DNA from: Desulfatiglandales bacterium
GTDB lineage: Bacteria; Desulfobacterota; DSM-4660; Desulfatiglandales; Desulfatiglandaceae
DNA length: 64,000 nt
Reading direction: 5' to 3'
Assembly: GCA_963662465.1 (NCBI GenBank)
Contig: OY759599.1
Location: 2,752,001 to 2,816,000 of the forward strand
Translations under genes and position numbers: made by a program
Shown here: positions 1,576 to 56,248 of the stretch, one piece after another
How the letters are laid out: the number at the start of each line of letters is the position of its first letter
How positions within the stretch are numbered: position 1 is the stretch's first letter
The notes under the pieces: generated by a model
What the model was told of the DNA's origin: nothing
What the model saw: the letters and a program-made list of their open reading frames with translations, nothing else
Database searches by the model: none

Positions 1576-3177
1576 TTATAGGGACTTTCCAACCGCATCA
1601 TCGCTATTCTTAATTTTTTTCCCGGGTTCTGTCAATAAATCCGTGTCCTCTTTCCAATCACCGTATTGGGTCCAGAAGCCCATGGCGCGACCGATGGATG
1701 CCGCGGTTTTCTCCCGATCATAAAAAGCCGTGGCGGCACGCAAGCGCGTTCGATTCCGCGCCAGTTCAGCTTCCAGATACCGGGTAATGGTGGCAGAGCC
1801 TCCTTCGTATTGTTTCTGCACCAGACGGAGGGACTCTTCAGCATGAGCGACACTTGCTTTCGTCACATCCCACCGTGCTTTTGCCTCCATATGTTTCAGG
1901 TAAGCCCCCTTGAGCTGAAGCTGCACCATAAGCGTCACTTTTCGATCGGCTCCCAACATCTCCTTGATCACCGCCCGGGCCCGGTCCACATGGGACTTTC
2001 GCCTGAATCCGGTAAAAACATCCCAGTTAAGGATCACCCCGGCGGTCCAGTTCTTCCGGTCCCAGTCAAAATTTAAACCCGAATCATCAAAATAGGTTTT
2101 CATCTGAGCATCCAGGCGCGGCAGGTATTCGGAACGCGCCACATCCAGGTCCATTCGCGAATGCACCACCCGCAGCCGGGTTATCTGCAGTTCGGGACGG
2201 TTTGCCATAGCCATGACCAACGCTTTTTCATACAGGTCGGGAACCTTTATGGGGGCCTGCCGGTCTCCTGCCAGGTGGATGGGTGTGTCGGGATCCAGGC
2301 CCAGCAAATTGGCCAGAGAGGACATACTGAGGCTGTGATTGTTTTCGGCCCGAATCAGTCCTTCCCTTGCCTGGGCCAGAGCGACTTTGAGCGACAACAC
2401 ATCGGACTTGAGGGCACTACCGGCATCATACCGCACAGTAACGATTTCCAGTTCCTTCTTGACCGTATTCACCGAATCGTGACTGATACCCACGTACCTT
2501 CCGGCGGCCAGCGCACTGTAATAGGCGTGGATAACGGAAGTGATCAGGCCGTTTTTCACACTGTCCCGGCCCAGCCGACTCATGTCAAGGCCCGTCTCCG
2601 CCATGCGCTTGCGCAGATAATCCCGTCCGCCGTTAAAGAGGTTGAAACGCCCTTGAATACCTACCTCATAGTTCTCAAACCACCCCGGATTGTTAAAGTC
2701 GGTGTTCGGCGGCAGTTTCCGCTGGTCAATGGTTTTAAAGAGATAGGCGGATGGCGCATTTCCCTGAAGGTACTCCCCGTAAACGCCGATTACGGGCCAA
2801 AATGCACTCATTGCCTCATCCAGCATGGCCTCGGACTGCTGAATGCGTGCCACGGCCATATCCATGTCCGGGTTATTTTGAAGGGCAATGCGGATTACTT
2901 TTTCAAGGGTCAGAGAACCCACGGGCTTCAGAACCTTTTCAGGGGATTGGGAAGCATCAGAGGGGGCCGATAACAAAAGAGATGCCCCTGCCTTTTCGGG
3001 CTTATCATACGCCTTTTTGATATGTTGATAATCATAGCGGTCGGCATGCTTACAAGAAAACAATATCGAGAGAAGCGCCACCGCCAGAAACCCGCGGCAG
3101 CAAACCCTTAAAATGTGATTTATTAGACATCTTTCCATTAAGATCTCACGCCATCCAAATTCAGTATTTTGAGCCAC
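1576..3177 (-). CDS. TolC-family outer membrane efflux protein (lipoprotein; start may be 3138)
   Basis: LTLEKVIRIALQNNPD, two OEP-like repeats, YDAGSALKSDVL / YEGGSATITRYL, lipobox-like LFSC. Confidence 0.9.
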   Translation of the reverse strand: MAQNTEFGWREILMERCLINHILRVCCRGFLAVALLSILFSCKHADRYDYQHIKKAYDKPEKAGASLLLSAPSDASQSPEKVLKPVGSLTLEKVIRIALQNNPDMDMAVARIQQSEAMLDEAMSAFWPVIGVYGEYLQGNAPSAYLFKTIDQRKLPPNTDFNNPGWFENYEVGIQGRFNLFNGGRDYLRKRMAETGLDMSRLGRDSVKNGLITSVIHAYYSALAAGRYVGISHDSVNTVKKELEIVTVRYDAGSALKSDVLSLKVALAQAREGLIRAENNHSLSMSSLANLLGLDPDTPIHLAGDRQAPIKVPDLYEKALVMAMANRPELQITRLRVVHSRMDLDVARSEYLPRLDAQMKTYFDDSGLNFDWDRKNWTAGVILNWDVFTGFRRKSHVDRARAVIKEMLGADRKVTLMVQLQLKGAYLKHMEAKARWDVTKASVAHAEESLRLVQKQYEGGSATITRYLEAELARNRTRLRAATAFYDREKTAASIGRAMGFWTQYGDWKEDTDLLTEPGKKIKNSDDAVGKSL

Positions 3178-3264: not shown

Positions 3265-6200
3265 TCACGAATCCTCTTTGCACTCCTTAGCCCGGGTTTT
3301 GTCTTCCCGCAACCAACTGGTGAGGAGATAAACAATATTCTTATATAAGGCGGGGTACTCCTCCAGAATTTCCTGAAAATCGTTGCCGGCAATCATCAGC
3401 ATTCGGCAGTCTTCCGCACATTTGGCCGTGGCCGAGCGGCCCTTTTTGTCCAACACGGCTATTTCCCCGAAACAATCCGGGGGGCCCACGCTCACCAGAA
3501 GTTTACCGTTTTCATTGATGATATCCACCTGTCCTTCCAGGATGAGATAGAGCGCATCGCCCAGGTCGCCTACCTTAAAAAGGACATGTCCTGCTTCAAA
3601 GCTGACCTCTCGTGCAATCTGGGCCATGATGATCATATCCGTAATGGAAAACCCTCTGAAAAGAGAGACCTTTCTCAAAAAGTGAACTTTTTCCAGTACC
3701 GGTATCATATCCTCAATCTCCTCCAAAACCGGCATAAACCGCTTTTGCATATTCGGCGGTACATCCAGGATGGCCGACATCTCCAGCCACTGATTGCTTT
3801 GCATCAAAACCTGTTCATAAACATCCTCAACCGTCAGATGGGACCCAGGTAAAGGTCTCACATTCGAAAGCAAACCGTCTTCAAATGATACTGCGTCCAA
3901 CAAGCGAAGGAACGCCCCATGCTCATCCTTGATCAGGCTTTCCAGATACTCGATGGATTTCCCTTTCACATGATCGGCCTTCTCCGATTGCGCCGCCCCA
4001 TGGGTAATCCGATAGAAAGAATCAAATATGCCCGGGTCAGGATGGAAGATATCCAGTATTTTGAACACACACCACATCCTATGCTCTATATTGCGGGCCA
4101 ATTCGATCAAGAGCAAGCTTTCCCTGTTCCATAATTTAACCACTCTATAGTAACGGCAATATTTTGTACACAGCTCAATTTCATTAGGCAAATCCGCCAA
4201 AACCGCACGGCAATCAAGGGTTGGTACAGCTTTTTTAATTTTCCCAATAACGTTCAGTGCTTCCTCTCGAATCAATGGCACATGAAAATTTCGCAAAATT
4301 TCAACCAAAAAATCAATGGCTTCGCTGGAAGGGTTGAATTGCAGGCTCCTCAGGCATTTCCGCAATTCAAAACGAGATTTGGAACGAATAATAGATGAAA
4401 TCATTCGGGAAATAATGGGGAAAGACGCATTCCCCAAAAGGGCCAGATTTTTATTGAATCTCTCAAAATCTCTGATACGCTCATAACCCACATGCTCCAG
4501 ATACAGGGTGAACAAGCGGGCATCCCCCAATTTTGCCAAGGCGCCGGCAATCACATCAAAGGCCTTCACAACATCCATGTCGAAGTGCCCCTCCACATCG
4601 CCCTTCAGGTGGGTAAAACCCAGGGTTCCGGTCAACCAGATCCCAGCCAGGATCTTTTCCGTTTCCGCTGAATGGATGAGGGAAACCGTTTCCTGAACCA
4701 CCAACCGCTTTAAATCCCGATTTCCGCTTCCATGGGCAATGGCCAATACATACCGCCGAAAATCGATGGAAAGGCTTAAATCCATCCACCGCGAAATAAC
4801 CGCCGCATTACGGATCCCCCACTGGGCAATCGTCTTGAGACAAGCCAACCTCAATAAATCATCGGTTTCCGCTTCAAACATGATTTCGAGCCGTTCAAGC
4901 AATCCGGAAATACCCAGCGATCCGATGACGGAAACGGTTTCCAGCCTCACATCCCGATCCTCGTTATCCAGAAGATCAAGCAGAATAAAATTCAGGCCCG
5001 ACGAATAGTTATTGTGAATGATGTCAAGGATGTAAAGGCATCCAAATCGATCGCGGGCGCCTGCAACCACCTTCTCATATTGCTCGACGATATAATTGAC
5101 ATCCATTCTCACCAGCGAACTTTCGGCGCCCGTCAGGGGCAAGCGCCTCAGGACCGACGTTCTGAGAGAGGAGACATAATACCCCGGAATTCGGGACACC
5201 ACGCCGATCATCACCATCAGAAAAGCCATAATCAGAAAACAATACAGGGACACCGTCCCCTCTTGGGGCGGCATGGCCACAAAAAAAAGGCAGATGACAA
5301 TAACCACCAAGGGTTTGATCAAAAGTTTGGAGTATAGCCGCAAGGCATTGCAGAGCCTTTCAGGAACGGAAAACATGAGTACCTGGTAAGCGGCATCAAA
5401 AATAATACGCCGGATCAGTTCATTGACGCCACACGCAACAATAGTTCCCCAGAACAAGAGATCTTCATAGCCGGACGTGCGCGTAAAATATGCCCATAGA
5501 ACAAAACACAGGTTCGGAATCAGCAGGAAAGAATAAGCAAAAAGGATACGGCCGTTAAACCACAGACGCGTGAAGAAATAAATAAAGGCAAGTTGAAAAA
5601 TTACTTGAAAGAAACTGATATAAGCCTTGTAATCTCCGATAAATTCTGTTTTCGAATCCGGTTCATTTGAACTATCGGAAAGGACCGTCTCCATTGCGGG
5701 CGCCGGGGGAAATTTCGCATTGACCTGGGTGTCAAAGAGAACCTTAAAAAAGAGGTTAAAAACGCCGATCAGGATAGTCAAATAAATGATGGATCTCATC
5801 ACCCGGTATTTCTTTTGAGATGCAAAAAGGCTCACGAAACCGACCCGTTCCTTTGAAGCGCCGGTCAGGATACGCGAGCGGTGAACGGAAAAGATGTAGA
5901 GAACAATCAGGTAGCTGATGCTGGAAAAAGCCATCGCCAGAAGGAGAAACCCTAAAGGGTAATCCGCCGGAATCAAGGGAACCACGCATCTTCCTGATAT
6001 GAAGGCGGCGATTCCCCCGGAAAACAGAAACAGGTTTTGAATTTTTCGTGATTCTCGAATGTCGATGGCAAAGTTGATAAGCGTCCAGGTCTGAACAATG
6101 ATAAAGTCGTCCAAGATATCATAAACAACAAAGTATAATGATGCTGGAAAGAATTTCTGCTGAAAACCAGGTAAAAACAAGGGAATCAAATAAAGCACCA

Positions 6201-6504
6201 GTGAGCAACCTATCAAAAAAAGCATGTCTCTTTTGATTCGATACTCAAATGAAACCTTGGGGTTCAGCACATGATAGAGGAAATAAAAAACGATAAACCC
6301 GAGACCCGCGAACCCGTACAGAAAGAAATAGGGCCGCTGGTTGTATACCTCCTGAAAAGCGGGTGTAAGTTGAATGGCCGTCAGAAAATTGCTCTTCGTA
6401 AAAGAAGTGATAACGGTAAAGCATGAAATGTTGAAAAAAACAAACAGGCATAACCCGATGATCAAGTGGACATGAGTGCGACTGGCATCCGTTCGATTCC
6501 ACAT
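3265..6504 (-). CDS. NTT/TLC-like MFS membrane domain + HEAT repeats + C-terminal cyclic-nucleotide-binding domain
   Basis: About 12 hydrophobic segments in aa 1-440 (QTWTLINFAIDIRESRKI resembles the NTT loop), helical HEAT-like middle, cNMP domain (GDALYLILEGQV, CFGEIAVLDKKGRSATA). Confidence 0.85.
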   Translation of the reverse strand: MWNRTDASRTHVHLIIGLCLFVFFNISCFTVITSFTKSNFLTAIQLTPAFQEVYNQRPYFFLYGFAGLGFIVFYFLYHVLNPKVSFEYRIKRDMLFLIGCSLVLYLIPLFLPGFQQKFFPASLYFVVYDILDDFIIVQTWTLINFAIDIRESRKIQNLFLFSGGIAAFISGRCVVPLIPADYPLGFLLLAMAFSSISYLIVLYIFSVHRSRILTGASKERVGFVSLFASQKKYRVMRSIIYLTILIGVFNLFFKVLFDTQVNAKFPPAPAMETVLSDSSNEPDSKTEFIGDYKAYISFFQVIFQLAFIYFFTRLWFNGRILFAYSFLLIPNLCFVLWAYFTRTSGYEDLLFWGTIVACGVNELIRRIIFDAAYQVLMFSVPERLCNALRLYSKLLIKPLVVIVICLFFVAMPPQEGTVSLYCFLIMAFLMVMIGVVSRIPGYYVSSLRTSVLRRLPLTGAESSLVRMDVNYIVEQYEKVVAGARDRFGCLYILDIIHNNYSSGLNFILLDLLDNEDRDVRLETVSVIGSLGISGLLERLEIMFEAETDDLLRLACLKTIAQWGIRNAAVISRWMDLSLSIDFRRYVLAIAHGSGNRDLKRLVVQETVSLIHSAETEKILAGIWLTGTLGFTHLKGDVEGHFDMDVVKAFDVIAGALAKLGDARLFTLYLEHVGYERIRDFERFNKNLALLGNASFPIISRMISSIIRSKSRFELRKCLRSLQFNPSSEAIDFLVEILRNFHVPLIREEALNVIGKIKKAVPTLDCRAVLADLPNEIELCTKYCRYYRVVKLWNRESLLLIELARNIEHRMWCVFKILDIFHPDPGIFDSFYRITHGAAQSEKADHVKGKSIEYLESLIKDEHGAFLRLLDAVSFEDGLLSNVRPLPGSHLTVEDVYEQVLMQSNQWLEMSAILDVPPNMQKRFMPVLEEIEDMIPVLEKVHFLRKVSLFRGFSITDMIIMAQIAREVSFEAGHVLFKVGDLGDALYLILEGQVDIINENGKLLVSVGPPDCFGEIAVLDKKGRSATAKCAEDCRMLMIAGNDFQEILEEYPALYKNIVYLLTSWLREDKTRAKECKEDS

Positions 6505-6540
6505 AGCGGCCGATTTCGGTTCTACAGCGGGTTTCCTTAT

Positions 6541-8202
6541 TTATTTTTCATCCAGTTTCAAAATCTTTCGGTTATAATCGTAGGTGCTGCTGATGCGGCG
6601 CAATTCCCTCACAAAAGGGATCTTCTTGAATTTATAAAACTGAAGGGTCTCAGGGGTATAATCCGCTTCATAAAGGGGAATATTCTCAAAGGTCTCGCCT
6701 TTATAAGCACTCTTTCTGATAAACCTGGACGTGGGGGCCCGGTCAAAAATCACCCGCCCGTCGTCATCATAACGGTACCCCTCCCGGTACAGCCATTTAT
6801 AAAAGCCCTTTCGGTCCGATGACGCCCTTAATTTATAGGGTTTTTTATTCTTGAGAGAATAGGCATGGAAATATTTGACGCCCATGACTTCAGGCTGCCC
6901 GTCGCCATCAATATCAAACACATCAAAATGGTTGGATTTGTTTCGGTAAGTCACCACCTGAGGCAACAATTTTTCATCTGATGGGAGCATCTGGCGCAAT
7001 TCGGAAATATGCCCGGCATTCACATGGGTACACCCGTGGGACATGGGGCCTCGGCTGAGCAGCCACAGTTTACGGTATGGCTTTCCGGTGCGGCTGTCTT
7101 TCGCGTTTTGCTTCCATTCGTTCGGAAGGAAATTGGTTTTTTTCGTATCCATCTCAAACCACAGGGTATGAAATGAGTTATGCAGCGTTTTCCCCACATG
7201 CATATAGGGAAGCCAGGGCAAATACCCATAACAGGCCTTATCGGGAATGTGGTCCACCACTTTGGTTCGCTGGTGATAGATAAGGTTGCGTTTGCCGGGG
7301 CAGGGATAAAGGGGCATTTCAACGCCGTCATATTTGGCGTATTCGTTGAGGGTGCCCACGGGATAAACGGCCGTGAATTCGTAAAAATCAAGCTTTTTCC
7401 CTTTAAGGGGATAGATACCCCCCGTCGCAGCCGCAAACAGTTCAACAGCGGCGCCGTAAAACGTATTCCAGGACGTCTCGCTTTTTTCAGCTTCCTCATA
7501 AAGGACATAGAGGGTGATGGCATCGCGCAGCTTGTTTTCCAACCGCCACGGCAACTCAGTGACCCAGATCCTTGTGGGCAACATATTGTTGATGAGAATC
7601 AGGCTCTCCTGGATCGATGGTTTTCGGGTTAAGAAAGGCGCCAGTTGGGCCGACCATTCGCGAATTCGATGCCCAAAATCGATTCGAATGTGGAACACCT
7701 TCCCCGGGTTCAGCTTTTCGAGCATTTCAAGACTGATTTTCCGGTACTCCGGCAGCGCCAAGTCATTTTTTTCGTCAGCCAGCTTCAGGATTTTTTCCTC
7801 TCCGATGATTCGGCTGAATTTTTCAAAACCCATGTTCTGAGTGAGGGTGATCTTTTCTTCTTCGACAAGCTCGTCGTAAACGCGATACCGCAATGCCAGA
7901 CCCGATAGATATGAATCAATCATCTCATCTGACAGGACAAGGGTCACCCGAATTTGATTGCCCCGCCCCAGATGGATATGAATGTGCCTGGGGTCCTGGC
8001 AACGAGGGGCAAATCCCGTATAAAAGGAAGGCTCTATCCGATCATAATAGACGCCCTGAAGCCGGGTGTCCGAATCTTCCGGCCGCTGGAGCTGATTTTT
8101 TAAGGGCTCAGCCGCCTGAACAAAAAAAACCGATGATGAGAAAAACAGCAAAACCATGAGGGTTAATTTGAATACAGTTGAACAACAAATGTCGATTTTC
8201 AT
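6541..8202 (-). CDS. Secreted protein with L,D-transpeptidase-like (YkuD) SHGC motif
   Basis: Sec signal ending VQA|AEP; HNSFH...GPMSHGCTHVN (Cys391); DIDGDGQPE Ca-binding-like loop. The CDS is certain, the function is tentative. Confidence 0.6.
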   Translation of the reverse strand: MKIDICCSTVFKLTLMVLLFFSSSVFFVQAAEPLKNQLQRPEDSDTRLQGVYYDRIEPSFYTGFAPRCQDPRHIHIHLGRGNQIRVTLVLSDEMIDSYLSGLALRYRVYDELVEEEKITLTQNMGFEKFSRIIGEEKILKLADEKNDLALPEYRKISLEMLEKLNPGKVFHIRIDFGHRIREWSAQLAPFLTRKPSIQESLILINNMLPTRIWVTELPWRLENKLRDAITLYVLYEEAEKSETSWNTFYGAAVELFAAATGGIYPLKGKKLDFYEFTAVYPVGTLNEYAKYDGVEMPLYPCPGKRNLIYHQRTKVVDHIPDKACYGYLPWLPYMHVGKTLHNSFHTLWFEMDTKKTNFLPNEWKQNAKDSRTGKPYRKLWLLSRGPMSHGCTHVNAGHISELRQMLPSDEKLLPQVVTYRNKSNHFDVFDIDGDGQPEVMGVKYFHAYSLKNKKPYKLRASSDRKGFYKWLYREGYRYDDDGRVIFDRAPTSRFIRKSAYKGETFENIPLYEADYTPETLQFYKFKKIPFVRELRRISSTYDYNRKILKLDEK

Positions 8203-8209
8203 TTCGGTG

Positions 8210-9511
8210 TTATCCTTGTGGAGTTATGTTCTCACGTTTTTTATATTCTTTGATCAATACCGGAACAATCAGAATCCAAATGACAATCAAAGCCATGAGC
8301 ATATAATTGATTCTGATGGCGGTCACGGCCATAATGGTCTGGAGTCCGATAATAACGGCGCCCACGCCGCCTTTTGCAAAGCGGTAGATAAACATGTCAA
8401 TAACCGCCTTGCCCTTGTATTTCTCAATATAACTCAATGGGATATAGAGGATCTCCTTGGCCGAACGGAAGATCGAATAGGTCAGGCTCTTGTTGGCCAG
8501 ACGCGTTCCAAACAGCACGGCCATGGTTGGGGCAAAGAAAAAGGCAAAAGAGCCTGCCCCCATGATGGCCGGCGCCAATACCAGGGAGAGCAATAACCCC
8601 AGGAAATGGAGCATGGGCGCACTGACCCCAAACTGGAGAACCAGCGAAATCACATTGGTCGCCCCATAAAACTTGGCCAGATAAGCCGTCCTCAGATCCA
8701 GTTCAGTCACCTGAACTTCCAGAACCTGGTTGAATTGCAGCCCGATCAGCGCCGTCACAAACTGGCTCAACATAAGCATGATGCATATTAGAATCAAATA
8801 TTTTGATTTCAATACCACATCAAAACCACCCCAGATGCTGCGCTTTTCCTCTTTTGTCTGCGTATCCATGGCATCTTTTTTCCGGGCCCGACTCAACACC
8901 GTACCACCCTTCCGGTTGGCATAGCCGAATAACCATACCCCTGCCAGCAAAGCGCCGCAACCGATAAAGATGAGGTTATTGGAACCCAGAACAGACGCCA
9001 GTTGCACAGTCAAGACGCTGGCCACGATACCGCCGATGGAACACGCCCCGGCCAGAAATCCATAAAGCGTCTTAGCCCCCTTTTCCGAGAAGGTAGCATC
9101 GCAAAAAGTCCACAATTGCTCTATTAAAATGACCACATAGATGTCTTTAACAATAAACGCCGTAAGGGAAAACCCTCGGTTTTTGGCCGAAAAAAACATA
9201 TAGAACAGGAGAAAAAAAGCGACCGCCAGGAAATTGCTCACCGCATAGAGCCGGGAAGGTCTGGATCGAATGACGAATTTATTGTAAACCCAGACGACCG
9301 CGGCCGTAGCCGCGGCCGACATGATCCAGACATGGGGCATTTTTGACGCCCCCCAGGAGGAGAGAAAAAGGGACTCGCAGACCGGCCGGATGAAACTATA
9401 ACTGAACAGCACCAGGAAAAAGCAGCCGAAAAGCGGCAGAAAAGCCCCTTTGTTTTCTCCGGCCGCGGTAAAAAACGCCTCATACAATCGCTTGATCCAG
9501 TTCATTTTCAA
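8210..9511 (-). CDS. Npt1/Npt2 (TLC, NTP/NDP exchange) family nucleotide transporter
   Basis: FSYSFIRPVCESLF, EQLWTFCDATFSEKGAKTLYG, KSLTYSIFRSAKEILYIPL...KYKGKAVIDMFIYRFAK. Confidence 0.88.
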   Translation of the reverse strand: MKMNWIKRLYEAFFTAAGENKGAFLPLFGCFFLVLFSYSFIRPVCESLFLSSWGASKMPHVWIMSAAATAAVVWVYNKFVIRSRPSRLYAVSNFLAVAFFLLFYMFFSAKNRGFSLTAFIVKDIYVVILIEQLWTFCDATFSEKGAKTLYGFLAGACSIGGIVASVLTVQLASVLGSNNLIFIGCGALLAGVWLFGYANRKGGTVLSRARKKDAMDTQTKEEKRSIWGGFDVVLKSKYLILICIMLMLSQFVTALIGLQFNQVLEVQVTELDLRTAYLAKFYGATNVISLVLQFGVSAPMLHFLGLLLSLVLAPAIMGAGSFAFFFAPTMAVLFGTRLANKSLTYSIFRSAKEILYIPLSYIEKYKGKAVIDMFIYRFAKGGVGAVIIGLQTIMAVTAIRINYMLMALIVIWILIVPVLIKEYKKRENITPQG

Positions 9512-9529
9512 TCCTCAAAAATCAATGCA

Positions 9530-12500
9530 TCAGGGCTGCCATCTGACTTTATCCGCCAGTGAAAAAGGTTGCCCTTCTTTCTCCTTAACCCCCTTGTCCA
9601 GTGCTGCCAAGGCCGGCAGGTTCCTCAAATCGCTGTTCCCCACAAAGGGCCGGGTTTGAAAAAGATAGAGTTTGCCGTCCACAAAACCGTATTCAATATC
9701 CCAGGGCAACGGATCCCCGCCGGTTCCCTTTTCAGGGATGAATTCTTTTTTAATTTTCTCCGCCGCATCCACCAGAGCGATGAGTTCCGGCTCCGTCAAC
9801 ACCCGCTCCGCGCCGGTGGAGGGCATCATCCGGCTGCCGCCCTTCCCTTCCAGGATGAGCATCCGCCGGGTGGGAGATTTAAACTGATTTAACAATACGG
9901 TCTCATTGGTACTGTAAAGCAACGTCTCGGCCGGAGAACCATCCACCGTGCCCCCGACACCTTCCGCCGTGGCGATGGTCATTTTAGTGGTATCCCCAGT
10001 GTCCACATCCGCCGTGATCAACACGCCGGATTTCTCCGACGGCACCGATTCCAAAACCACGATGGAGGGGAATACCAGGTTCGGATCGCTGATAACCGTC
10101 TGACGCCAGGAAAATGAACGATAGGTAAAGGGCGAAGCCCACACCTCTTTAACCCCTTCCAGTACATCCTTAAAGGTCATGAGGTTAAAAATGGTCAGGT
10201 TGAGACCGGCGCCGTTGAAATTGGGCATGTCTTCCACATTGGTATCGGAACGGACAAAAACACCCCGCAACCGTTCCTTTTCAGGACCCGTGAAAATTCC
10301 CTGAGATGCGATCTTCTCTCGCAGCGCTTCCACAAAAACCGGATCCAGGGTAATATTTCCAATGGAATATCGAACCACATCCAGCCTGGGTCGGATCCAT
10401 TGGGCCAGTTGAGTGGACGACATATGGGGATCCTTGAGCAGTTGATTAAAAAAAACGTCATAAGTCTGCCGCACAAATGCCGCCAGGGACTCTCCGGATT
10501 CGGCAATCCCCTTGCCCTTGAGATTCTCGGGCAACGCCACCACGGCCTTTTGAAAATGAGCATCATAGATACCAAAGGGAATCACCACCCCTCGGGCCAC
10601 ATTTTTGGGGAAATGGTATTTCAATTCCCCCAGAAAAGCAGCCTTGGGTCCGCACACAACGCCGGAATCCTTACGCCTGAGATTGTCCAACCCCAGGACC
10701 CGGGTCTCCTTGAGATTCAGCCTTTCGGCGTCTATGGCCAATTTGCCGGTTTGCCCTTTGATATCCGCATCACGGGTCCGTTTAAGGTTTTTTTCATATT
10801 CCGCCAGGATCAGTTTGTCTGCCTGATCCATCTTTTCGGCTTCCTTTAAAATGATCCGGCCCACAGGCGTAACCGCATAGAACAGGGACCGCCCCTGAAC
10901 CGGGGCTAACTGCCGGTACAACCCGTCCAAAAACACAGCATTGGGTACCCCAAGGGCGCGCGCCAGCAACTGCACATGGGATACCACATTTCCCTCATCC
11001 TTGGTGATGATGCCGGCCACGGGCTCAAGCTCCGCATTGGTGGTCTCAAGGGCCAGAATATTGTCCCGTGTGTAGCGCTGACCATCAAAAAACGCCAGAG
11101 GCCCCAGGGCCAGCCCCGGATTCAGGGCTCTTACGCCTTCAATAACGGTCTTTCCCAGAATGTGATGTTTAAGGCCCAGTTTACTTAACACATACCCTCG
11201 CAGGGATTTAATGATGGTGGCATAACCCATCAGGGGGGAAGATCGGATGATGTCGTCATTGATCCGCTGGACTTCCGGCAAAAGAAACACCCAGGGATCC
11301 CAAACGTCTGCAAATGCCGTTCGGATGGACGACTGCGCCCATTCCACAGCCAGATTTGAACGATTCAGAAGACGATACGCATCTCCCAGGGTTAAACCCT
11401 TTTTGTCGAGCAGTTTGTTAAAGGATAAAATACCGGTCTCATATTCCCGGTGACTCATCAGTCCGGCGCCATAGCTGCCGGCCAGCATATCCTTCAGGAT
11501 ATCAATCAGTTCCATGACCGTCCACTCCCGATCCAGCTCCATGAGCCGGTTGGCCGTCATGAGGATGAGCAGGTTGGCGGAAACATTCAGGTTAATTAAG
11601 GTCACGGCTTCTTCCGGTTTGATGGCCTTAACCGCCACCGTCTCCCGGGATGCCACCACCAGATCCGCCAGACTGTGAAGCAGCCTCAGGGGCGCATTGT
11701 GGGGAATATTCAATATATTTTTAATGAGATCCTGAATCCCTTTATTGGATATGATCGGCAAATATTCTTTCAACTGGCTTTGGTCCACATAAGTCAGACT
11801 TCGGATCATTTCAATCAACCGCACGTAATTCTGATCGTTTTTCCGGTCCTGGGGATGCTTTTTCCGAAAATCCTCAATCAGGGGAATCAAACTGGGAGAC
11901 AGGCGGTTGTGCACCAGATCTTTTACCGGCTTAAAGGGGGGATAGCTACGATAAATGACCAGGGACAGGTTTCGGATGTCATTGACCATAAAGAGGTTGG
12001 ATTTGCAGAAAAAACGTCGCTGCAATTCATATTGCAAAAAATAATCGTGAAAATCATTCCAGTCGGCAAGGGCATAATATTTGGCAAATAACATGGGGGC
12101 ATATTTGACCTCGAACTCCGTGCCGGAAATGCCCCCATAGGCGCGGGACATGTTAAGCTTGCTCTCCGGATGGGTATCCATGTAATATTTCTCAAGGATG
12201 AAGCCTTTAACCACACTATGATGATCCGGGTTTTGATCCCATAAGAACACTTCGTTGGAAAAGATGTTCCCCACATAAACCCCGAATCGTGCGAGGGTTT
12301 CAGCTGCATCATTACGGTAGGCCGAACAGAAAAGCTGCCCCACCCCCTCAAGTTCCCGGCAGGGATTGGGCCGAACCTTCATGTTCTTGTCCGCCACCGG
12401 CGCGAGCTTCCCATTGGTACAGGTACAGGTATTGATGGTAAAAGGCCCCTTTCTTTTAACCAGGATCGACTTATAAGCATTCTTCAAGACATTTTCTTCC

Positions 12501-12580
12501 CTGGAAGAAAGTTCGGCCCATCCAGGATCGCCAAAAAACAGAACACATAACGGAATCAGCGCCCACCATAATTTTTTCAT
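9530..12580 (-). CDS. Signal-peptide-bearing PEP-utiliser/dikinase-like protein (N-terminal helical region, phospho-His swivel domain, C-terminal PPDK_N ATP-grasp)
   Basis: MKKLWWALIPLCVLFFGDPGWA signal; GNVVSHVQLLARALGVPNAV (His535); GPKAAFLGEL, VFVRSDTNVEDMPNFNGAGL, SGVLIT, DIEYGFVDGKLYLFQTRP. Confidence 0.85.
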   Translation of the reverse strand: MKKLWWALIPLCVLFFGDPGWAELSSREENVLKNAYKSILVKRKGPFTINTCTCTNGKLAPVADKNMKVRPNPCRELEGVGQLFCSAYRNDAAETLARFGVYVGNIFSNEVFLWDQNPDHHSVVKGFILEKYYMDTHPESKLNMSRAYGGISGTEFEVKYAPMLFAKYYALADWNDFHDYFLQYELQRRFFCKSNLFMVNDIRNLSLVIYRSYPPFKPVKDLVHNRLSPSLIPLIEDFRKKHPQDRKNDQNYVRLIEMIRSLTYVDQSQLKEYLPIISNKGIQDLIKNILNIPHNAPLRLLHSLADLVVASRETVAVKAIKPEEAVTLINLNVSANLLILMTANRLMELDREWTVMELIDILKDMLAGSYGAGLMSHREYETGILSFNKLLDKKGLTLGDAYRLLNRSNLAVEWAQSSIRTAFADVWDPWVFLLPEVQRINDDIIRSSPLMGYATIIKSLRGYVLSKLGLKHHILGKTVIEGVRALNPGLALGPLAFFDGQRYTRDNILALETTNAELEPVAGIITKDEGNVVSHVQLLARALGVPNAVFLDGLYRQLAPVQGRSLFYAVTPVGRIILKEAEKMDQADKLILAEYEKNLKRTRDADIKGQTGKLAIDAERLNLKETRVLGLDNLRRKDSGVVCGPKAAFLGELKYHFPKNVARGVVIPFGIYDAHFQKAVVALPENLKGKGIAESGESLAAFVRQTYDVFFNQLLKDPHMSSTQLAQWIRPRLDVVRYSIGNITLDPVFVEALREKIASQGIFTGPEKERLRGVFVRSDTNVEDMPNFNGAGLNLTIFNLMTFKDVLEGVKEVWASPFTYRSFSWRQTVISDPNLVFPSIVVLESVPSEKSGVLITADVDTGDTTKMTIATAEGVGGTVDGSPAETLLYSTNETVLLNQFKSPTRRMLILEGKGGSRMMPSTGAERVLTEPELIALVDAAEKIKKEFIPEKGTGGDPLPWDIEYGFVDGKLYLFQTRPFVGNSDLRNLPALAALDKGVKEKEGQPFSLADKVRWQP

Positions 12581-12693: not shown

Positions 12694-14328
12694 ATGATAT
12701 TCACCCGTATGAAAAGCCAAAAAATCCCAATATCCGTTGGGTTTCTATTGACAATACTCTTCTCATTTCCATATGCTCACGGCGCACCTCGGCAGCAGGA
12801 CACGGGAAAAACGCCCTGTCTTCATCACCTCGTTGTCCTCTATACCAATGACGTTCACGGGCATCCGGTCAAGTTTTCAAATCTCTCCGTACCCGATGTG
12901 GGGGGTCTGCCCGCCCGGGCCACACTCGTAAAGGAAATCAGGAACGCCAATAAAAACGTCCTGCTTCTGGACGCGGGCGATCTGAATACCGGTGAAGCGG
13001 AATCCAATTTCTTCAAGGCAAAACCGGACATCCTGGGGTATAATTTCATGGGATATGACGCCATGGTGCTTGGAAATCATGAATTCGACAATCCCATCCC
13101 CGTTCTCAGAGAACAAATGGACCTGGCAAGATTCCCCTTCCTTTCCGCCAATATCAAAACCCAGGAGGGGGATGACCTGGCAATCCCTTTTATCATCAAA
13201 CAATTTGACGGCTTCAAAGTCGCCATTTTCGGACTTACCACAACAGACACCCAATTTATCGGAAACCCGGATTACATCAAAGACCTTATTTTTGAAGATG
13301 AAGTTGACGTCGCGAAAAATCTGGCGCCCATCCTGAAAAAACAGGCGGATGTGATCATTGCCCTCACCCACCTGGGCATATATGAAGGCAACAACCGGGG
13401 ATCAAAACGGCTGGCGTCCCAGGTGAGCGGCATTGATTTGATTGTAGACGGCAATACGGATACCAAACTGGATGCGCCCATTATCATTCAACAACCGGAT
13501 TCCGGCCATCAAACCCTGATTGTTCAGGCGTGGCACTGGGGTCTGGTTCTGGGAAAAATCGACCTTTGGATTGAGGACAAACAGGTTGTGGATTTCAATA
13601 TGGAACTGATTCCCATTAATTTGAAAAGGGTTGTCAGGAACGCGGATGGGAAAAAGACCTTTCATTTGATCGGAAACGAAATCAAGGAAGACCCGGCACT
13701 CCTGGCACTGCTTCAACCTTACAGGGACAAAGTCGGCCGGTTCCTCTCTGAAACCATCGGATATGCCAAAGGCGCCTTTGAATATGATGACGGAAGATTC
13801 CGGGAAACAGCCCTTGGCGACCTGGTGGCCGATGCCATGCAGTGGCATATGAGACGATTCAATCCGGATTTTGCCTTGACCAACAGCGGCGCCATCCGGG
13901 CAGGGCTTTCCGAAGGGCCACTGACCCAGAAAGCCATCTACGACATTCTTCCCTTTAACACTTCCGTGGTGTTTTTGACGTTGACGGGAACCCAGGTTCG
14001 AACTCTTTTTGACTATCTGGGAACCATCCAGCCGGGTGAAGGCGCCTTTCCACAGGTATCGAACGGTGTTTATTTCACCCTGAATCGCGAGAAGAAAAGT
14101 TGCGACAACATCCTCATCAACGGCAAATCCATTGATCCTGATAAATCATACGGCATCGCAACAAATTCGTATCTCGCAAAGGGAGGAGACGGCTATCGTA
14201 TTTTTTTAGAAGCGACCGACCCGTTTGATTCATCCATTTTCCAACGAGACGCCCTGATTGCCTACATCAAGCATCTGGGAGGAAACATTGCCCCGAAAGT
14301 AAACAAAAGGATGATGCTCATTCCATGA
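12694..14328 (+). CDS. Secreted 5'-nucleotidase / UDP-sugar hydrolase (start 12694 or 12709)
   Basis: YTNDVHG, LLDAGD, LGNHEFD, LTHLG, NSGAIR, YLAKGGDGY; N-terminal hydrophobic signal. Confidence 0.92.
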   Translation: MIFTRMKSQKIPISVGFLLTILFSFPYAHGAPRQQDTGKTPCLHHLVVLYTNDVHGHPVKFSNLSVPDVGGLPARATLVKEIRNANKNVLLLDAGDLNTGEAESNFFKAKPDILGYNFMGYDAMVLGNHEFDNPIPVLREQMDLARFPFLSANIKTQEGDDLAIPFIIKQFDGFKVAIFGLTTTDTQFIGNPDYIKDLIFEDEVDVAKNLAPILKKQADVIIALTHLGIYEGNNRGSKRLASQVSGIDLIVDGNTDTKLDAPIIIQQPDSGHQTLIVQAWHWGLVLGKIDLWIEDKQVVDFNMELIPINLKRVVRNADGKKTFHLIGNEIKEDPALLALLQPYRDKVGRFLSETIGYAKGAFEYDDGRFRETALGDLVADAMQWHMRRFNPDFALTNSGAIRAGLSEGPLTQKAIYDILPFNTSVVFLTLTGTQVRTLFDYLGTIQPGEGAFPQVSNGVYFTLNREKKSCDNILINGKSIDPDKSYGIATNSYLAKGGDGYRIFLEATDPFDSSIFQRDALIAYIKHLGGNIAPKVNKRMMLIP

Positions 14329-23779: not shown

Positions 23780-24241
23780 ATGAAAAATACAACCTCTTGT
23801 CAGTCGAAGAGCCCTGAGATTCTGAAGGCCCTTTCCATTCGTCAACCGTGGGCAACGCTGGTAATGCAAGGCGCCAAAACCATGGAAATCCGGTCATGGA
23901 GACCCGCAAATATGGTATTTCCCGAAACGTTGCTGATCCACGCGGGTAAAAAACCTGATTTGGATGCCATCAGGCGGTTCGAATTCCCGCACAACCTGCC
24001 CGGAGGCATCATTCTGGGGCAGGTCGTGATGACCGACATTACCCCATATGAAAATAAAGATCAATGGATGGAAGATATCCCCATCCACTTGAACCGGCCG
24101 GAAGCGTACCAACAGGGGCTCTACGGTTTTCGGTTCTCACACCCCCGCCAATACCCATCGCCCATTCCCTTTAAAGGGCGTTTGGGATTTTTCAAGGTCC
24201 CTGCCTTGACCATTCAATTTCCCGGATGCCGTGGCTATTGA
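23780..24241 (+). CDS. ASCH domain protein
   Basis: ALSIRQPWA...GAKTMEIRSW...LLIHAG...KGRLGFF. Confidence 0.88.
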   Translation: MKNTTSCQSKSPEILKALSIRQPWATLVMQGAKTMEIRSWRPANMVFPETLLIHAGKKPDLDAIRRFEFPHNLPGGIILGQVVMTDITPYENKDQWMEDIPIHLNRPEAYQQGLYGFRFSHPRQYPSPIPFKGRLGFFKVPALTIQFPGCRGY

Positions 24242-26622
24242 ACATCCATATCAAATTGCGAAAAAGACTTTAGTTTGGCCGCGGTGGGTTTGGGAGAATA
24301 TGTTGCGGGTTCCGTTCCCTCTTTAAAAGCCTGAAACACCACTTTTTTCGAATGTCGTCCGGCCAAAAGACCGGTTTCCCCGTCTATCTTCGCAAAAACG
24401 ACCCCTTTGGGGATCTGGAAATCTTTTACCGGCTTTTCAGCCAGGACCCCCTGCATAAAATCCAGCCAGATGGGACTGGCGGCCCTGGAACCGGTTTCTC
24501 CCTTGCCCATCTCCCTTGAGTCGTCGTACCCCACCCAGACGCCGGTCACCAAATCGGGCGTATATCCCATGAACCAGGCATCCCGAAGATCGTTGGTCGT
24601 GCCCGTCTTTCCCGCGGCGGGCCGTTTCAATGCCCTGACGCGCCAGCCCGTCCCTTCGGTCACAACGGCCTTTAGCAAATCCGTCATCACAAACGCCGTT
24701 TCCTTTGAAAGAACCGGCGTCGTTTCAGGCTGATTCTCTTCAATGACCTGACCGCCCCGGTCCAAAATCCGTTTCACGAAGAAGGGTTTCACCAGCATCC
24801 CGCCATTGGCAAAAACAGCGTACGCCCGGGTCAATTCCATCAGAGACACACCGGATGAACCCAGGGCCAGTGAAAGATCCGGGGTCAAATCAGATTCGAT
24901 TCCCATATTCCGGGCATACGAAATAGCATAATTAACACCGATTTTATTCAGGATCTTGACGGTAATCACATTTCTGGATTTAGCCAGACCCGTCCTGATC
25001 AATGTGGGGCCATAGAACTTTTTCTTATAATTTTTGGGTTTCCAAACTTCCCCATCGGCATTGGGAGTGGACACATAAGGAGAATCCATAATAATACTCA
25101 CCGGACTCATCCCCTGATCCAGGGCCGCGGAATAAATCAAGGGTTTGAAAGCGGATCCGGGTTGACGTCTGGACTGGATGGCCCGGTTAAACTGGCTGTC
25201 ATCAAAACTACGTCCCCCCAGCATGGCTTTCACCTCGCCCGTCTCAGGGTTCAGGCAAACAAGCGCCCCCTGGGCCATCGGGGTCTGTTCCAACGCAACC
25301 TCCCAGGTAAAATTTTCACCATCGCCATATCTTTTAAGAACCCGCACCAAAACAACATCTCCGGATTTCAACACCGAAGAAGGTTTTTTGACCCGAGCGG
25401 CGTAGTATGGCGCCTTTTTATCGGGCTTCCTTGCCCATTTCATCTCCTTTAGTGGAAGACAAGCCATCTCTTTTCCCAGTCGAATGGAAACCCGGCTCTT
25501 TTCATCATCCACTTTCGTAACCAATCCCTGTACCACGGAATCGACGTTCATTACCGTTTTCTTCACCGCCGAACCCACTTTGGGAGGCGACATCGAGAAG
25601 GCGTGCGCCGCACGCACTTCATAATCTCGAATTTCTTCCGCCGAAAGGTGGCGTATGGGACCGCGATATCCTTCACGTTTGTCCAGATCCGTCAACCCCT
25701 TACCGAGGGCTTCCCTTCCGATAACCTGCATTTTGAGATCCAGCGTTGTGTAAACATCGAGACCCCCTCGATACAGGAGGTCTTTTCCATATTTTTCCAA
25801 CAGATAACGTCGCACATGCTCTGAGAAGTAGGGGGCGCGTTCAAAGGTGTTGACGCCCTTCATACGAATATCAAGCTCAGTTTCTAACGCCAGGGTCCGC
25901 GATGCCTCATCTATGAATCCTTCTTCAAGCATCCTTGAAAGAACGTATTTCTGCCGGGCCTTGGCCCGATCAAAATGGGAAACCGGTGAATACCTGGCCG
26001 GCGCCTGGGGCAAACCCGCCAGGAGGGCAGCCTCCGCCAGCGTCAGGTCTTTTGCGGGTTTTCCAAAATAGGTTTGGGTTGCGGCCTCCACGCCATATGC
26101 GCCCTGCCCCAGATAAATCTGGTTGAGATAGAGAAACAGAATATGTTCCTTGGAAAAAGTTTTTTCAAGCTGAATGGATAAAATAGCTTCCCGGACCTTG
26201 CGCCGATAGGTCTTTTTGACGTTCTTCAGAATTAGAGATTTGGTGACCTGCTGGGTAATGGTACTCCCCCCCTGTTCAACCTTCCCAGCTGACAGGTTCT
26301 TCAAAAAAGCCCGAACAATGCCTTGAATATCCACGCCCTGGTGTTCAAAAAAGCGAGAATCTTCCGCCGCCACAAAGGCATTGATCAAGTGGTCGGGAAG
26401 CGCCGAAAGGGGAACCACAGTCCGTTTTTCCTCCCAGAGTCTTCCAATAACTTCGCCGTCATCACTGTAGATTCTTGTGATCACTGGAGGCCTGTAATCC
26501 TTTACGGACCCCACATAGGGAAGGTTGCTGGACCAGAGATACCAGAAATAGGCGCCGACACTGAGGCCAATGACCGCAACGATGGAAAAAAGCCACAGAA
26601 AAATCTTAAAGAACAGTTTCAT
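24235..26622 (-). CDS. mrcA: Penicillin-binding protein 1A
   Basis: EDSRFFEHQG, GGSTITQQ, RKVRE, PGSAFK, SRN, KTGT. Confidence 0.95.
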   Translation of the reverse strand: MKLFFKIFLWLFSIVAVIGLSVGAYFWYLWSSNLPYVGSVKDYRPPVITRIYSDDGEVIGRLWEEKRTVVPLSALPDHLINAFVAAEDSRFFEHQGVDIQGIVRAFLKNLSAGKVEQGGSTITQQVTKSLILKNVKKTYRRKVREAILSIQLEKTFSKEHILFLYLNQIYLGQGAYGVEAATQTYFGKPAKDLTLAEAALLAGLPQAPARYSPVSHFDRAKARQKYVLSRMLEEGFIDEASRTLALETELDIRMKGVNTFERAPYFSEHVRRYLLEKYGKDLLYRGGLDVYTTLDLKMQVIGREALGKGLTDLDKREGYRGPIRHLSAEEIRDYEVRAAHAFSMSPPKVGSAVKKTVMNVDSVVQGLVTKVDDEKSRVSIRLGKEMACLPLKEMKWARKPDKKAPYYAARVKKPSSVLKSGDVVLVRVLKRYGDGENFTWEVALEQTPMAQGALVCLNPETGEVKAMLGGRSFDDSQFNRAIQSRRQPGSAFKPLIYSAALDQGMSPVSIIMDSPYVSTPNADGEVWKPKNYKKKFYGPTLIRTGLAKSRNVITVKILNKIGVNYAISYARNMGIESDLTPDLSLALGSSGVSLMELTRAYAVFANGGMLVKPFFVKRILDRGGQVIEENQPETTPVLSKETAFVMTDLLKAVVTEGTGWRVRALKRPAAGKTGTTNDLRDAWFMGYTPDLVTGVWVGYDDSREMGKGETGSRAASPIWLDFMQGVLAEKPVKDFQIPKGVVFAKIDGETGLLAGRHSKKVVFQAFKEGTEPATYSPKPTAAKLKSFSQFDMDVQ

Positions 26623-51817: not shown

Positions 51818-54800
51818 ATGGACAACAGAACCTGGCTGCAAGGTGTGGGGTCCAGAACATCAATGCGCGGTTTTTGGAGATGCGCTGTTCTGGCAATTCT
51901 GGCTTTTGTATTGTTGCATCTCTCGCAAAGGGAAGTGTACGCGGTCCAAACCGTCATCCAGGACTGGGATGGCAGCGTCATGGATACCATCGACTGGACC
52001 ATCAGCAACAATGTGGAAATTATCGACAGTTGGGCAAGCCGTTGCAAGGTGTACAAAGGCAGTGATACTGATATTACAGCCTATTGTTATTACGAAGCGG
52101 ATTTCACCGAACTGGGCGGCTGGGTGGACGTCCAAGCCACGTTTTCCCCGAAAACGCGTTTTCAGCAAGAAAGCTTTCGGGTTTCCTATGGGTACTCACA
52201 GACCTCCCATCCATGCGGCAACTACGAGGTATGTCCCGAAACCTTTGACATCAGCCATGGGGATAATTTCTGGCCTTACTATTACCGCTGGGGTACAAGT
52301 CTGTACGATCCCTCCATGGGGGGATCTCTCGGCCACGGCTGGGGAATCACCATACGGTTTTATGGCTTTACTTACTCCCCTGGCTCCCCTATCGCCATCC
52401 GCAACTATGCCATCCATATCCGGCCGACCAATTCGCAGGCCCTTGCATGGCGCAAACGGTTCTATCCGCCGCAGCCGAACAATGGGCAACCGTGGCCCTG
52501 CTCACCCAAACCGCCCAAGCCCTATCCGCCCAAGCCGGAGGAACTGAAGGATCCGGCCAACCCCTATGAGGGCGCCGGAGCGTGTATGCCTTTTGGGCTG
52601 CCCGTCTATTGGGTGGACCCGAACACGCTGACCCTGTACGTACAGGACACGGATTTTTCATACGAGGGTCTGGGTCCCAGGGTAAAGATGACGCGGTATT
52701 TTTCCAGCCAAAGCGACCCGCTTCTCTATGACCGGAGCGGTTCCTTCGGACACGGATGGCATTTTTCCTATGACACACGGCTGACAGAATCCGGATGTAA
52801 TGTGATGCTGATGGACCTGGAGGGAAAGGAACGCATTTTCGGCTATCCCGAGGGGGACTGTGGCGGCGGAAGCGCGGGATCACCCCTTGAACTGTCTCCA
52901 TCTGAAAACGTTTTTGACAGGTTGTTTGCCCATGGAAGCGGTGTCTTTGTCCTGGAGCGCAAATCCCCGCGGGAATGGTTGCGATACGAGCCCTATGGCG
53001 ATGTTTCCCGCCTGGTTTCCGTGGCTGACGCCGCGGGCAACCAGATAACGGTCCAGCGCGCGGTGAATGGAAAAATCCAGGAAATTCGGGATGCCGCGGG
53101 AAGAAGCACCGCTCTGACCCACGACGCGCAGGGACAATGCACTGCTTTGACCGCGCCGGACAGCCGAAAGACCACATTTGCCTATGATGCCGGCGGGAAG
53201 CTCGTCCGAAGCACGGACTTCATGGGAAATCAGACCGATTACGGCTACGACGCCGACGGGCACATGGTTACCATGAAAAACGGGGGCAAGACGACCGCTT
53301 TCGGCTATTCCTCCAGTGAATCGCTGGGCCGCTACATATCTTCCCTGACCAACGCTAACGGTTTGAAAAAAACCTATCGGGTCACAATTGTGGGGAACAC
53401 CTTTGGGGTGGAGGAGGCTTTCCCGTCCAACAGCAAGAGAACATACACCGGCATGCTGACGCGTCCGGTGCTCATCAGCGCCCGCGACGGGGCCGACAAC
53501 GGTCCGGATTATGCCTATACTATTTCCGGTACAAGCACTCCGAGCGTTATCGGAGCTATTAATTACACGGACCCCCTGGGTGAAAAGACCACCATCCGCA
53601 GAAATGACCGCGGCAACATCACGAAATACGAATCACCGGACAATAACCATGTCACTTACACCTACAACGACACGGACAGGATGACGAGCCGCAGCAATTT
53701 CCTGAATGAGAAGTGGGCGTATGAATATAACGCCTTTGGCAATCTGACCAGGGGCACATCGCCCGAAGGGAGGACAACCACTTTTGAATACAACGCCGAC
53801 GGATTGCTTACGAAAACAACCAATCCCCGGAATGCCGTCACCCGCTATGAATACGACGCCTTCGGGAATCTTAAGCGAATGGTGAATCCCCTGGGAAATG
53901 AGATTTTGTGGGAATACGATACCCATGGCTTTAAACCAACGTCCATTGTCGATCCGCGGGGTAACCGGACCCGATTTGCGTATGATCCCTTGCACCGTTT
54001 GACCCGAACAACCCATCCGGACGGCACCTGGCGAGAAAACGATTACAACTGTTGCTCCCTCGCATCCTCGACCGACGAAAACGGCTATACGACCCTCGTT
54101 GAAAGCGACGGCATGCATAAACCCTTGCGAATTACGGACCCCTAGGGGAATGCCCTGGCATTCTCCTACAATCAGGATGGGAACCTCTCTCAAACAACGG
54201 ACGCTCTGGGAAGGATAACCCGGTTCAGCAATGATAAGGCCAACCGGCTGTCCCGGTTCACGGATCCCAATGGTGTGGCGGTTTCCATGTCCTATGATAA
54301 GCAGGGCAACATGACCACGATTACAGACGGGTTGAACAACCGGATGCAGTTCCAATACGACGTCAACCATCGCATGAGCCGGATCACGGATCAGCTGCTT
54401 AGAAACATCGTTTTCACCCGCAACGCGGCCGGTCGCGTGACGTCCAGAACCAACTCCCGGGGCCAGGTGGTGGGCTATGCATACAACAAGGACGGGTTTC
54501 TGGTGCAAAAGGACTATAACGGGGTCATTGAGACGAGTTATCAGCGAAACGAGGTGAACCGGATTGAGCGTATGACGGACCCTGGCGGGGAAACCGTGTA
54601 TGAATACGACCTGTCCGATCAGGTTACGGCCATTACCTATCCCAACGGCATGAAAGCGACCTTTGCGTATGATCCAGCGGGGAACTTGGAACGGATCGTC
54701 TACCCCGGCGGTGTGACGGCAACGTATGGCTATAATTCCCGAAACAGGGTCGAGGCGCTCACCTGGGGCGGGAAAACCGTCACCTTTCAATACGACGGCG

Positions 54801-55984: not shown

Positions 55985-56248
55985 GAGCCTAAATGAGCGA
56001 AAAGCGTAAGGACATCACGACAGGGTAGCGGGTATGGAGTCGGTGGATCCGGGCGCTTGGGTTTGGAACACATGGAGAAAGGGCAGGTAATGCGGCAATA
56101 CGTTGATGGAAGAAAGAGAAAGGCAGCCAACCGCAAAGTGGCTGAAGCAACGGCAAAGGCATGCCGAAATGGGTGGCATGGACACGGGCGAAAGTTGCTA
56201 GGGGTTCGCATGTGTACCCTCCAAAAATGCAAGATCGGAGGATAAATC

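Follow-up and report, generated by a model that had tools for sequence, protein, structure and literature searches.

How ATP passes across the inner membrane to the bacterial periplasm is stated as open in a 2020 review (PMC7432876), and in the survey by Major, Embley and Williams 2017 (PMC5381601) the NTT and NTT-HEAT-cNBD architectures of free-living bacteria are catalogued as uncharacterised, with the role of NTT carriers framed as uptake or inter-cell transfer and no link to exported enzymes mentioned in the text consulted. Both architectures are present in the locus described here, a four-gene operon at positions 3265 to 12580 of a 64,000-nucleotide stretch (the whole of which we call the window) from the genome of a Desulfatiglandales bacterium (assembly GCA_963662465.1, contig OY759599.1, positions 2,752,001 to 2,816,000), where they lie beside genes for a predicted exported dikinase of the phosphoenolpyruvate (PEP)-utilizer family and a predicted exported cysteine enzyme with an SHGC motif. 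The dikinase, a partner enzyme and an NTT form a module that is real, conserved and apparently undescribed; a literature search, with most subscription papers outside its reach, found no description of a dikinase-NTT-SHGC module. We tentatively read it as a periplasmic ATP-fed activation module, in which an exported dikinase supplied by an NTT would activate an envelope peptide for acyl-transfer partners, a reading that in our judgement stops a little short of probable.

Among described systems, GWD1 and PWD of plants and algae resemble the module in having an acceptor region, a phospho-His and a C-terminal ATP-grasp domain (which is the order of GWD), and in working outside the cytosol on ATP from a plastid NTT, as is proposed here. 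For GWD, one report describes a C-terminal phospho-His and transfer of the beta-phosphate via the His (PMC13666283). The window dikinase differs from GWD in that it is bacterial, has a Sec-type signal, is accompanied by partners with peptide acyl-transfer folds, and has no carbohydrate-binding module; none of the 44 homologues scanned reached the GWD1_pHisD cut-off. Membership of GWD was rejected, there being no starch-binding module and no GWD-type His domain above cut-off. RPH, PigC/RedH, PEP synthase and HpeI share with the window dikinase the ATP-grasp fold and its residues and a swivelling His domain, but in the window protein the domains are permuted in order, the 450-residue N-terminal domain is unrelated to theirs and an export signal is present, and Val/Leu replaces the Thr that these enzymes carry two residues before the phospho-His.

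The other components compare in a similar way. The carriers resemble the two architectures of the survey, except that the carrier domain of the window fusion looks degenerate. YkuD L,D-transpeptidases share a fold with the model of the SHGC protein, in which a His upstream of S-H-G-C is also conserved. The SHGC protein differs in its size of about 500 residues, which includes large helical insertions, in its wider spacing of His and Cys and in the occurrence of two paralogue types side by side, and it has no sequence match in Pfam or the PDB. The Fam20C secretory-pathway kinases of eukaryotes rely likewise on a carrier that brings ATP to an enzyme outside the cytoplasm; the window module differs from them in its enzyme, its carrier family and its setting in a bacterial periplasm.

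Structure of the operon

A first-pass annotation, made from the letters of the window alone, had described four co-oriented genes, and all four stand on the minus strand as it placed them, separated by 18, 7 and 36 nt: the dikinase gene (9530..12580, 1016 aa), the single-domain NTT/TLC-family membrane carrier gene (8210..9511, 433 aa), the gene for the cysteine enzyme, a type A SHGC paralogue whose model has an L,D-transpeptidase (YkuD-like) fold (6541..8202, 553 aa), and the NTT-HEAT-cNMP fusion gene (3265..6504, 1079 aa). The carrier more likely starts at ATG 9505, which GAGGA precedes by six bases, than at 9511, and the first intergenic gap then becomes 24 nt. The nearest named relatives of the locus, at 74-91% identity, are Desulfatiglandales/Desulfobacteraceae genomes including NaphS2. 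The four-gene order is complete in 8 of 12 close loci and interrupted by contig ends in the remaining 4, and the four-gene operon is real. A promoter scan performed at chance (15 vs 15.5) and a terminator scan near chance (26 vs 18), while one metatranscriptome gave a share of 0.06, with contigs that were mostly the relatives' own and none spanning the operon.

The exported dikinase

Pfam, a structural model, conservation and an export heuristic all support the earlier description of the first protein as a signal-peptide protein with a phospho-His motif and a PPDK-type ATP-grasp domain. In Pfam, residues 771-983 match PPDK_N (E 2e-25), and residues 516-550 give a weak match to the PEP-utilizer His domain (E 0.0014). 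The model (pLDDT 86, pTM 0.82) has a signal peptide at about 1-23, a helical region at about 24-468 that is the putative acceptor-binding region, a swivelling phospho-His domain bearing His535, and an ATP-grasp domain at about 620-985. By VIA comparison the ATP-grasp domain resembles rifampin phosphotransferase (Z 32.7, root-mean-square deviation 2.5, 313 aligned) and HpeI (Z 26.4), and residues 473-590 match the His domains of Enzyme I and PPDK (Z 8.7-10.6, Enzyme I 10.6). In an alignment of 135 homologues (14 clade I picks and 121 representatives of at least 930 aa), K646, R777, D961 and R977 are conserved in all 135 and H535, T796, E963 and Q975 in 134; the catalytic roles of the ATP-grasp residues are those that we take to hold in RPH and PPDK. 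Within the N-terminal region E157 and H224 are 99-100% conserved and E155 and R203 nearly so, and these four are candidate acceptor-site residues. The predicted ATP-grasp and swivelling phospho-His domains place the protein in the PPDK/PEP-utilizer dikinase superfamily, and it is very probably an active His phosphotransferase. The database label 'phosphoenolpyruvate synthase' was rejected; the ATP-grasp domain is C-terminal with nothing after it, and the NCBIfam models of PEP synthase/PPDK give scores of 84-89 where their cut-offs are 598-740. With 460 clusters at 50% identity that reach E 1e-30 or better, the family is large, and look-ups of the clusters for functional names returned none. 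For the N-terminal domain, the best 50 rows of the whole-model search, which the C-terminal domains filled, held no fold match at Z of at least 8, and the sole Atlas match scored 0.81.

These comparisons bear on the acceptor. If ATP supply and export were as we propose but the acceptor were the hydroxyl group of a glycan or of a small molecule, with the Cys/Ser enzymes cutting peptides off to release or accept the substrate, the dikinase would behave as do its His-swivel relatives GWD, RPH and PEP synthase, whose known phosphorylation targets are all hydroxyl or enol oxygens. In its domain order the dikinase agrees with GWD, RPH is the best structural match, and GWD1_pHisD is among the matches listed for 6 of the 44 homologues (the best 5 families only for one protein), at best with E 0.002 and 18 bits against a cut-off of 27. 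We nonetheless think a hydroxyl acceptor fairly unlikely, since the window protein and the 44 homologues have no carbohydrate-binding module, no glycan enzyme recurs among the 46 hand-picked flanking proteins scanned of 140 listed, and the steady partners have peptide acyl-transfer folds.

Signal peptides were scored throughout by an in-house heuristic, not SignalP, with a background of 14% of genome open reading frames (ORFs; 308 of 2132 long ones). It detected export signals in 91 of 104 close and in 98 of 116 more distant dikinases of full length, and in neither of two cytoplasmic-type PPDK_N paralogues. Cys54 is present in 133 and Cys74 in 132 of the 135 homologues, as expected for a disulfide. 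We are highly confident that the dikinase is exported, and a cytoplasmic location, which the first-pass annotation had named as fatal to its proposal, is not borne out, the signal and an N-terminal Cys pair being family-wide. That the dikinase is cytoplasmic or cytoplasm-facing and the gene order a transfer accident might be argued from the heuristic nature of the signal calls and from the way operons move as blocks, but with 84-88% of the family signal-positive across phyla, the conserved Cys pair, exported partners and the repeated recruitment of different NTT lineages, we find this hardly credible.

Linkage across genomes

The dikinase scan took the best 80 of 416 relatives, and contig counts describe a sample weighted toward near relatives. 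The locus set, counted by hand, comprises 113 distinct dikinase-hit contigs, 71 of clade I and 42 of clade II, the latter including two weak distant hits without any partner (L013, L014); one contig row (L034) and one of the five NTT-neighbourless genomes mentioned below rest on an unpublished genome (G443). Partner genes were located by six-frame profile searches, as longest-ORF clustering was misled by shadow frames in GC-rich loci. SHGC is present in 68 of the 71 clade I contigs, and in 44 of the 47 found by dikinase scans alone, two of the three misses being contig ends. No clade II contig (0/42) has SHGC, and 39 of 42 have an adjacent SxxK enzyme instead (large family 38/42, small 28/42).

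An NTT lies in the fetched region of 39/71 clade I and 24/42 clade II contigs. Where at least 9 kb of each flank is available the counts are 13/17 and 12/16 (25/33 in total; some fusion calls in these linkage counts are partial at contig ends), against an estimated chance proximity of about 1%. The linkage of dikinase and NTT genes whose absence had been put forward as a refutation thus recurs across phyla. Of 149 genomes of the class, 12 have the dikinase (8 of them in one genus), and each of these 12 carries SHGC and a single NTT as well; no more than 14 of the 149 have SHGC, and in both SHGC-only genomes the contigs end where the dikinase would lie. In the family of genome G439, all 17 dikinase genomes have at least two NTT matches compared with 35 of 104 others, while mere presence of an NTT in the genome (92/121) does not discriminate. 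One Bacteriovoracaceae locus (L046) has the dikinase and one SHGC gene, with no NTT detected in the assembly.

Partner enzymes

The SHGC protein passes the signal heuristic, in keeping with its earlier description as secreted. The best 14 VIA rows for its model (pLDDT 89), of 48,161 chains, all have the L,D-transpeptidase fold (Z 7.4-5.8; the best with root-mean-square deviation 2.5 over 111 aligned residues), which supports a YkuD fold through the consistency of the list, the Z scores being middling. ESM Atlas neighbours include YkuD clusters at 0.83, a lead only, while Foldseek on the model was empty and PDB sequence and profile searches yielded nothing useful, as was also the case for the larger serine family. 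There are two types of SHGC paralogue, A and B, which share the candidate catalytic residues His345 and Cys391 (71/71 type A; 50/53 type B, the other three being gaps), His341 being confined to type A. The host genome encodes a type B paralogue at G000:C1:7400004-7401557, absent from the first-pass account. Complex prediction for the dikinase N-terminal domain with the SHGC protein gave no answer (score 0.00).

In clade II, SxxK, SxN and K(S/T)G are conserved in both serine families, of whose aligned rows 16/16 and 14/15 carry an export signal. The partner had been called transpeptidase-like, which the model fold of the SHGC protein supports, with the unrelated SxxK fold substituting for it in the other dikinase branch. 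Two unrelated acyl-transfer folds known from peptidoglycan chemistry thus appear to alternate beside one dikinase.

Among the matches of the SxxK partners are class A beta-lactamase-like proteins and Tll2115, and NCBIfam RPH, PigC and RedH match the dikinase, far below cut-off. Taken together these matches could point to a detoxification or natural-product module, in which an RPH- or PigC-like dikinase acts on an external antibiotic-like molecule beside beta-lactamases. The NCBIfam matches are, however, limited to the ATP-grasp domain, no invariant glutamate is evident after SxN in the smaller serine family, and biosynthetic genes do not recur among the neighbours examined; we consider such a module improbable.

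Carriers

The NTT/TLC assignment of the single carrier holds (Pfam TLC E 2e-22, 80 bits against a cut-off of 21; 10 hydrophobic segments in a simple scan). It scores below the TIGR00769 cut-off and matches the solved Chlamydia and plastid ADP/ATP carriers with E 5e-11 and 4e-5. In Arabidopsis NTT1 we take the essential charged residues to be K155, E245, E385 and K527, numbers that map onto chain 9j3j at offset 84; the window carrier has Asp at E245, Lys at K527, Gly at E385 and no counterpart of K155. Of the 46 dikinase-linked carriers, 20 share the Asp/Lys pair, the remaining 26 having Gly/Asp. Judging from gene linkage, ATP is somewhat more probably than not supplied by the single NTT.

The retained lysine, taken as the phosphate site, would also suit reverse operation, in which the dikinase makes periplasmic ATP from an external phospho-donor and AMP and the NTT imports it, PPDK-family reactions being reversible and NTT antiport well suited. 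Neither Pfam nor the model shows a PEP/pyruvate-binding barrel in the dikinase, and reverse operation, which we regard as very improbable, leaves the transpeptidase-fold partners and the kinase-linked NTTs described below without a role.

The fourth protein is the NTT-HEAT-cNMP fusion that had been annotated, its cNMP (E 2e-20) and HEAT parts recognised by Pfam and its NTT part by profile alignment: there is no TLC match, and the N-terminal part aligns end to end with single NTTs (profile-profile; probability 99.95, E 1.5e-38). The phosphate-binding cassette for a cyclic nucleotide at 1012-1027 appears intact. The carrier domain is divergent and looks degenerate; because the conserved Tyr-Ser and the K527-region pattern are lost, we do not count the fusion as a second exporter, and it is more likely a regulated or accessory subunit.

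Fusions also occur elsewhere. Two further NTT-HEAT-cNMP genes in the host genome (L170:7477-10797 and L171:7000-10224), without a dikinase, neighbour an acyl-CoA synthetase/GNAT fusion, a radical-SAM gene and a 385-aa ORF, and ten fetched dikinase-free fusion loci mostly adjoin RimK/GshB-type, radical-SAM or signalling genes. Fusions in L179, L180, L182, L183 and L185 adjoin RimK-like and glutathione-synthetase-like ATP-grasp genes, B12 radical-SAM genes and peptide ABC binding proteins, neighbours which hint that some fusions have a different substrate.

Single NTTs beside other exported enzymes

Twelve genomes of the class have a strong single NTT and no dikinase (9 from one genus), and 11 of them have an exported-looking metallophosphatase-kinase or HipA/PI3K/Fam20-like kinase within about 6 kb. 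A scan for HipA/PI3K/Fam20-like kinases gave 79 loci, mostly Acidobacteriota; 24 of these, and 19 of the 46 with full flanks, have an NTT no more than 6 kb away. Such kinases, which are unrelated to the dikinase, would be another exported consumer of ATP with a carrier at hand, in favour of the supply idea. An even sample of 301 genomes of the phylum held 11 with a strong NTT, 8 of them new, whose neighbours were a clade II dikinase module (1), an exported-looking NAD(P) enzyme (2) or other genes (5). Twenty hand-picked regions of the G439 family gave 5 kinases, 6 exported-looking aldo-keto reductases or zinc dehydrogenases, 1 dikinase module and 8 others.

In a FastTree phylogeny of 87 single NTTs (46 dikinase-linked, 21 kinase-linked, 8 redox-linked), the 8 redox-linked carriers sit in one 10-row group separate from the others, while dikinase- and kinase-linked carriers interleave, forcing at least 6 changes for the dikinase label. 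This indicates that dikinases were paired with different NTT lineages more than once. NTT lineage appears to track the cofactor of the exported neighbour, and cofactor supply fits better than scavenging; labels were assigned after the neighbours had been seen, the sample is non-random and long branches meet, so the tree is support rather than proof.

The enzymes next to carriers of the NAD(P) group are aldo-keto reductases or a short-chain dehydrogenase, which have twin-arginine-like leaders, or zinc dehydrogenases, whose leaders are signal-like (NTT-redox loci L207:1122-3374, L209:4486-6902, L298:4307-6567, L301:4388-6615, L310:4823-7072, L311:5914-8171, L308:5602-8149 and L309:5385-7838), and a separate NTT group possibly supplies NAD(P)(H) to exported redox enzymes. 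Exported-looking metallophosphatase-kinase fusions lie beside single NTTs or NTT-HEAT plus cNMP genes at L172:6327-9582, L175:5973-9218, L176:5517-8941, L297:7069-10417 and L228-L282. Another exported-looking protein of about 475 aa, without a Pfam match, adjoins a single NTT at L300:7791-9206, L302:2887-4323 and L303:2923-4362 (in L302 a metallophosphoesterase also adjoins it) and is a candidate further ATP consumer. Omp85-family barrels stand beside NTTs at L203:4361-5698 and L204:12891-16067, the latter locus also encoding an exported 583-aa protein.

Nucleotidases and salvage

Divergently transcribed from the operon, at about 12709..14328 on the plus strand, is a gene for an exported UshA-like 5'-nucleotidase that was absent from the first-pass account (NCBIfam UshA E 5e-109, yet under cut-off; export signal by the heuristic), probably starting at ATG 12709 and not TTG 12580. 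Nine of 71 clade I contigs, all from close kin, have it next to the dikinase, and it is an accessory that the module has locally, in this lineage; in L007, L008, L009 and L189 it is co-oriented with a second SHGC paralogue. The protein has G-N-T-D at residue 248, a position where a G-H-S-H/Q metal motif is usual, and its metal site or specificity may differ. In three distant genomes a class B acid phosphatase lies inside (L316:6593-7444) or beside (L084:8117-8998, L142:3726-4646) the dikinase module. The nucleotidase may clear AMP, and could equally serve salvage.

Inward salvage would have the NTTs import nucleotides or a phosphorylated product while the dikinase uses ATP from outside or from leakage. 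The recurrence of exported nucleotidase-type enzymes is in its favour, as is the failure to see an NTT in some dikinase genomes. Characterised bacterial NTTs import (PMC5381601), and the E. coli periplasm holds about 24 uM ATP per 1e10 cells without a translocase (PMC7432876). The same nucleotidases would, however, remove the importer's substrate, and NTT lineage appears to follow the neighbour's cofactor, with 8 NAD(P)-linked carriers in one 10-row group. We consider salvage unlikely.

Proposed mechanism

In the periplasmic ATP-fed module that we favour, the single NTT in the inner membrane would, as its linkage suggests, export ATP and return the spent nucleotide. By analogy with PPDK-family chemistry, the beta-phosphate of ATP would pass to His535 with release of AMP and phosphate, and a swivel of the His domain would then bring it to an acceptor bound in the N-terminal domain. 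The most speculative steps are the last: a stem peptide of peptidoglycan, or another D-amino-acid peptide like it, would serve as acceptor, and its carboxylate would become an acyl phosphate, be taken up by the Cys or Ser enzyme and end as an amide bond; an envelope peptide as acceptor seems to us a possibility not quite reaching even chances. The first-pass proposal, in which the NTTs export ATP against AMP or ADP and the cNMP domain could exert control, is supported in part, ATP/AMP exchange and regulation by cNMP being putative.

Several observations weigh against this mechanism. The L,D-transpeptidase match of the SHGC protein is only middling (Z at most 7.4). The YkuD motif is HXX14-17[S/T]HGC-x-[R/N], and the spacing from His345 to Cys391 is 46 residues against about 14-17. 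The window NTT is without two of the four residues that we take to be essential in plant NTT1. The fusion is not peculiar to the module, as NTT-like genes occur in 76 of the 149 class genomes and the dikinase in 12, and in 55 of the 79 kinase loci no NTT lies within 6 kb. Exported ATP would, moreover, be broken down by a periplasmic UshA. The dikinase-NTT link is not obligatory: no NTT is nearby in 8 of 33 well-flanked dikinase contigs, of 5 genomes in which the dikinase has no NTT beside it, 2 show none anywhere (completeness of the assemblies not being established), and in the G439 family an NTT is next door to 3 of the 17 dikinases among the matches listed (26 unlisted; counted by hand). 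Finally, NTT transport properties are not predictable from sequence, according to a review (PMC6995639).

Surroundings of the operon

A TolC-family outer membrane protein is encoded 87 nt downstream of the operon (1576..3177, minus strand) and probably lies outside the module; TolC, FmdE and an SNF2 helicase were rejected as members, being retained only in the closest relatives. Four RHS/YD-repeat ORFs cluster at 51818-61309 of the window, two with DUF6531 and near-identical starts, and the first copy seems divided into two ORFs. A class A penicillin-binding protein (transglycosylase and transpeptidase) is encoded at 24235-26622, about 12 kb from the operon, with no sign of a link.

Significance

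With this module, candidates can be named both for an ATP carrier and for an ATP consumer, whose phospho-His could be trapped, and Parahaliea mediterranea DSM 21924 (L079) is a host in culture; a periplasmic ATP route and the function of NTTs in free-living bacteria thereby both become directly testable. More speculatively, free-living Gram-negatives would use NTTs as periplasmic cofactor exporters and the module would be an ATP-driven peptidoglycan ligase outside the cytoplasm, using exported ATP and the phospho-His to renew the activation of a peptide carboxylate, so that enzymes of L,D- or D,D-transpeptidase fold could make amides from donors without a pre-loaded D-Ala bond, an extension that we regard as doubtful. 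If the acceptor is peptidoglycan, wall chemistry would gain a second energy source besides the D-Ala-D-Ala bond.

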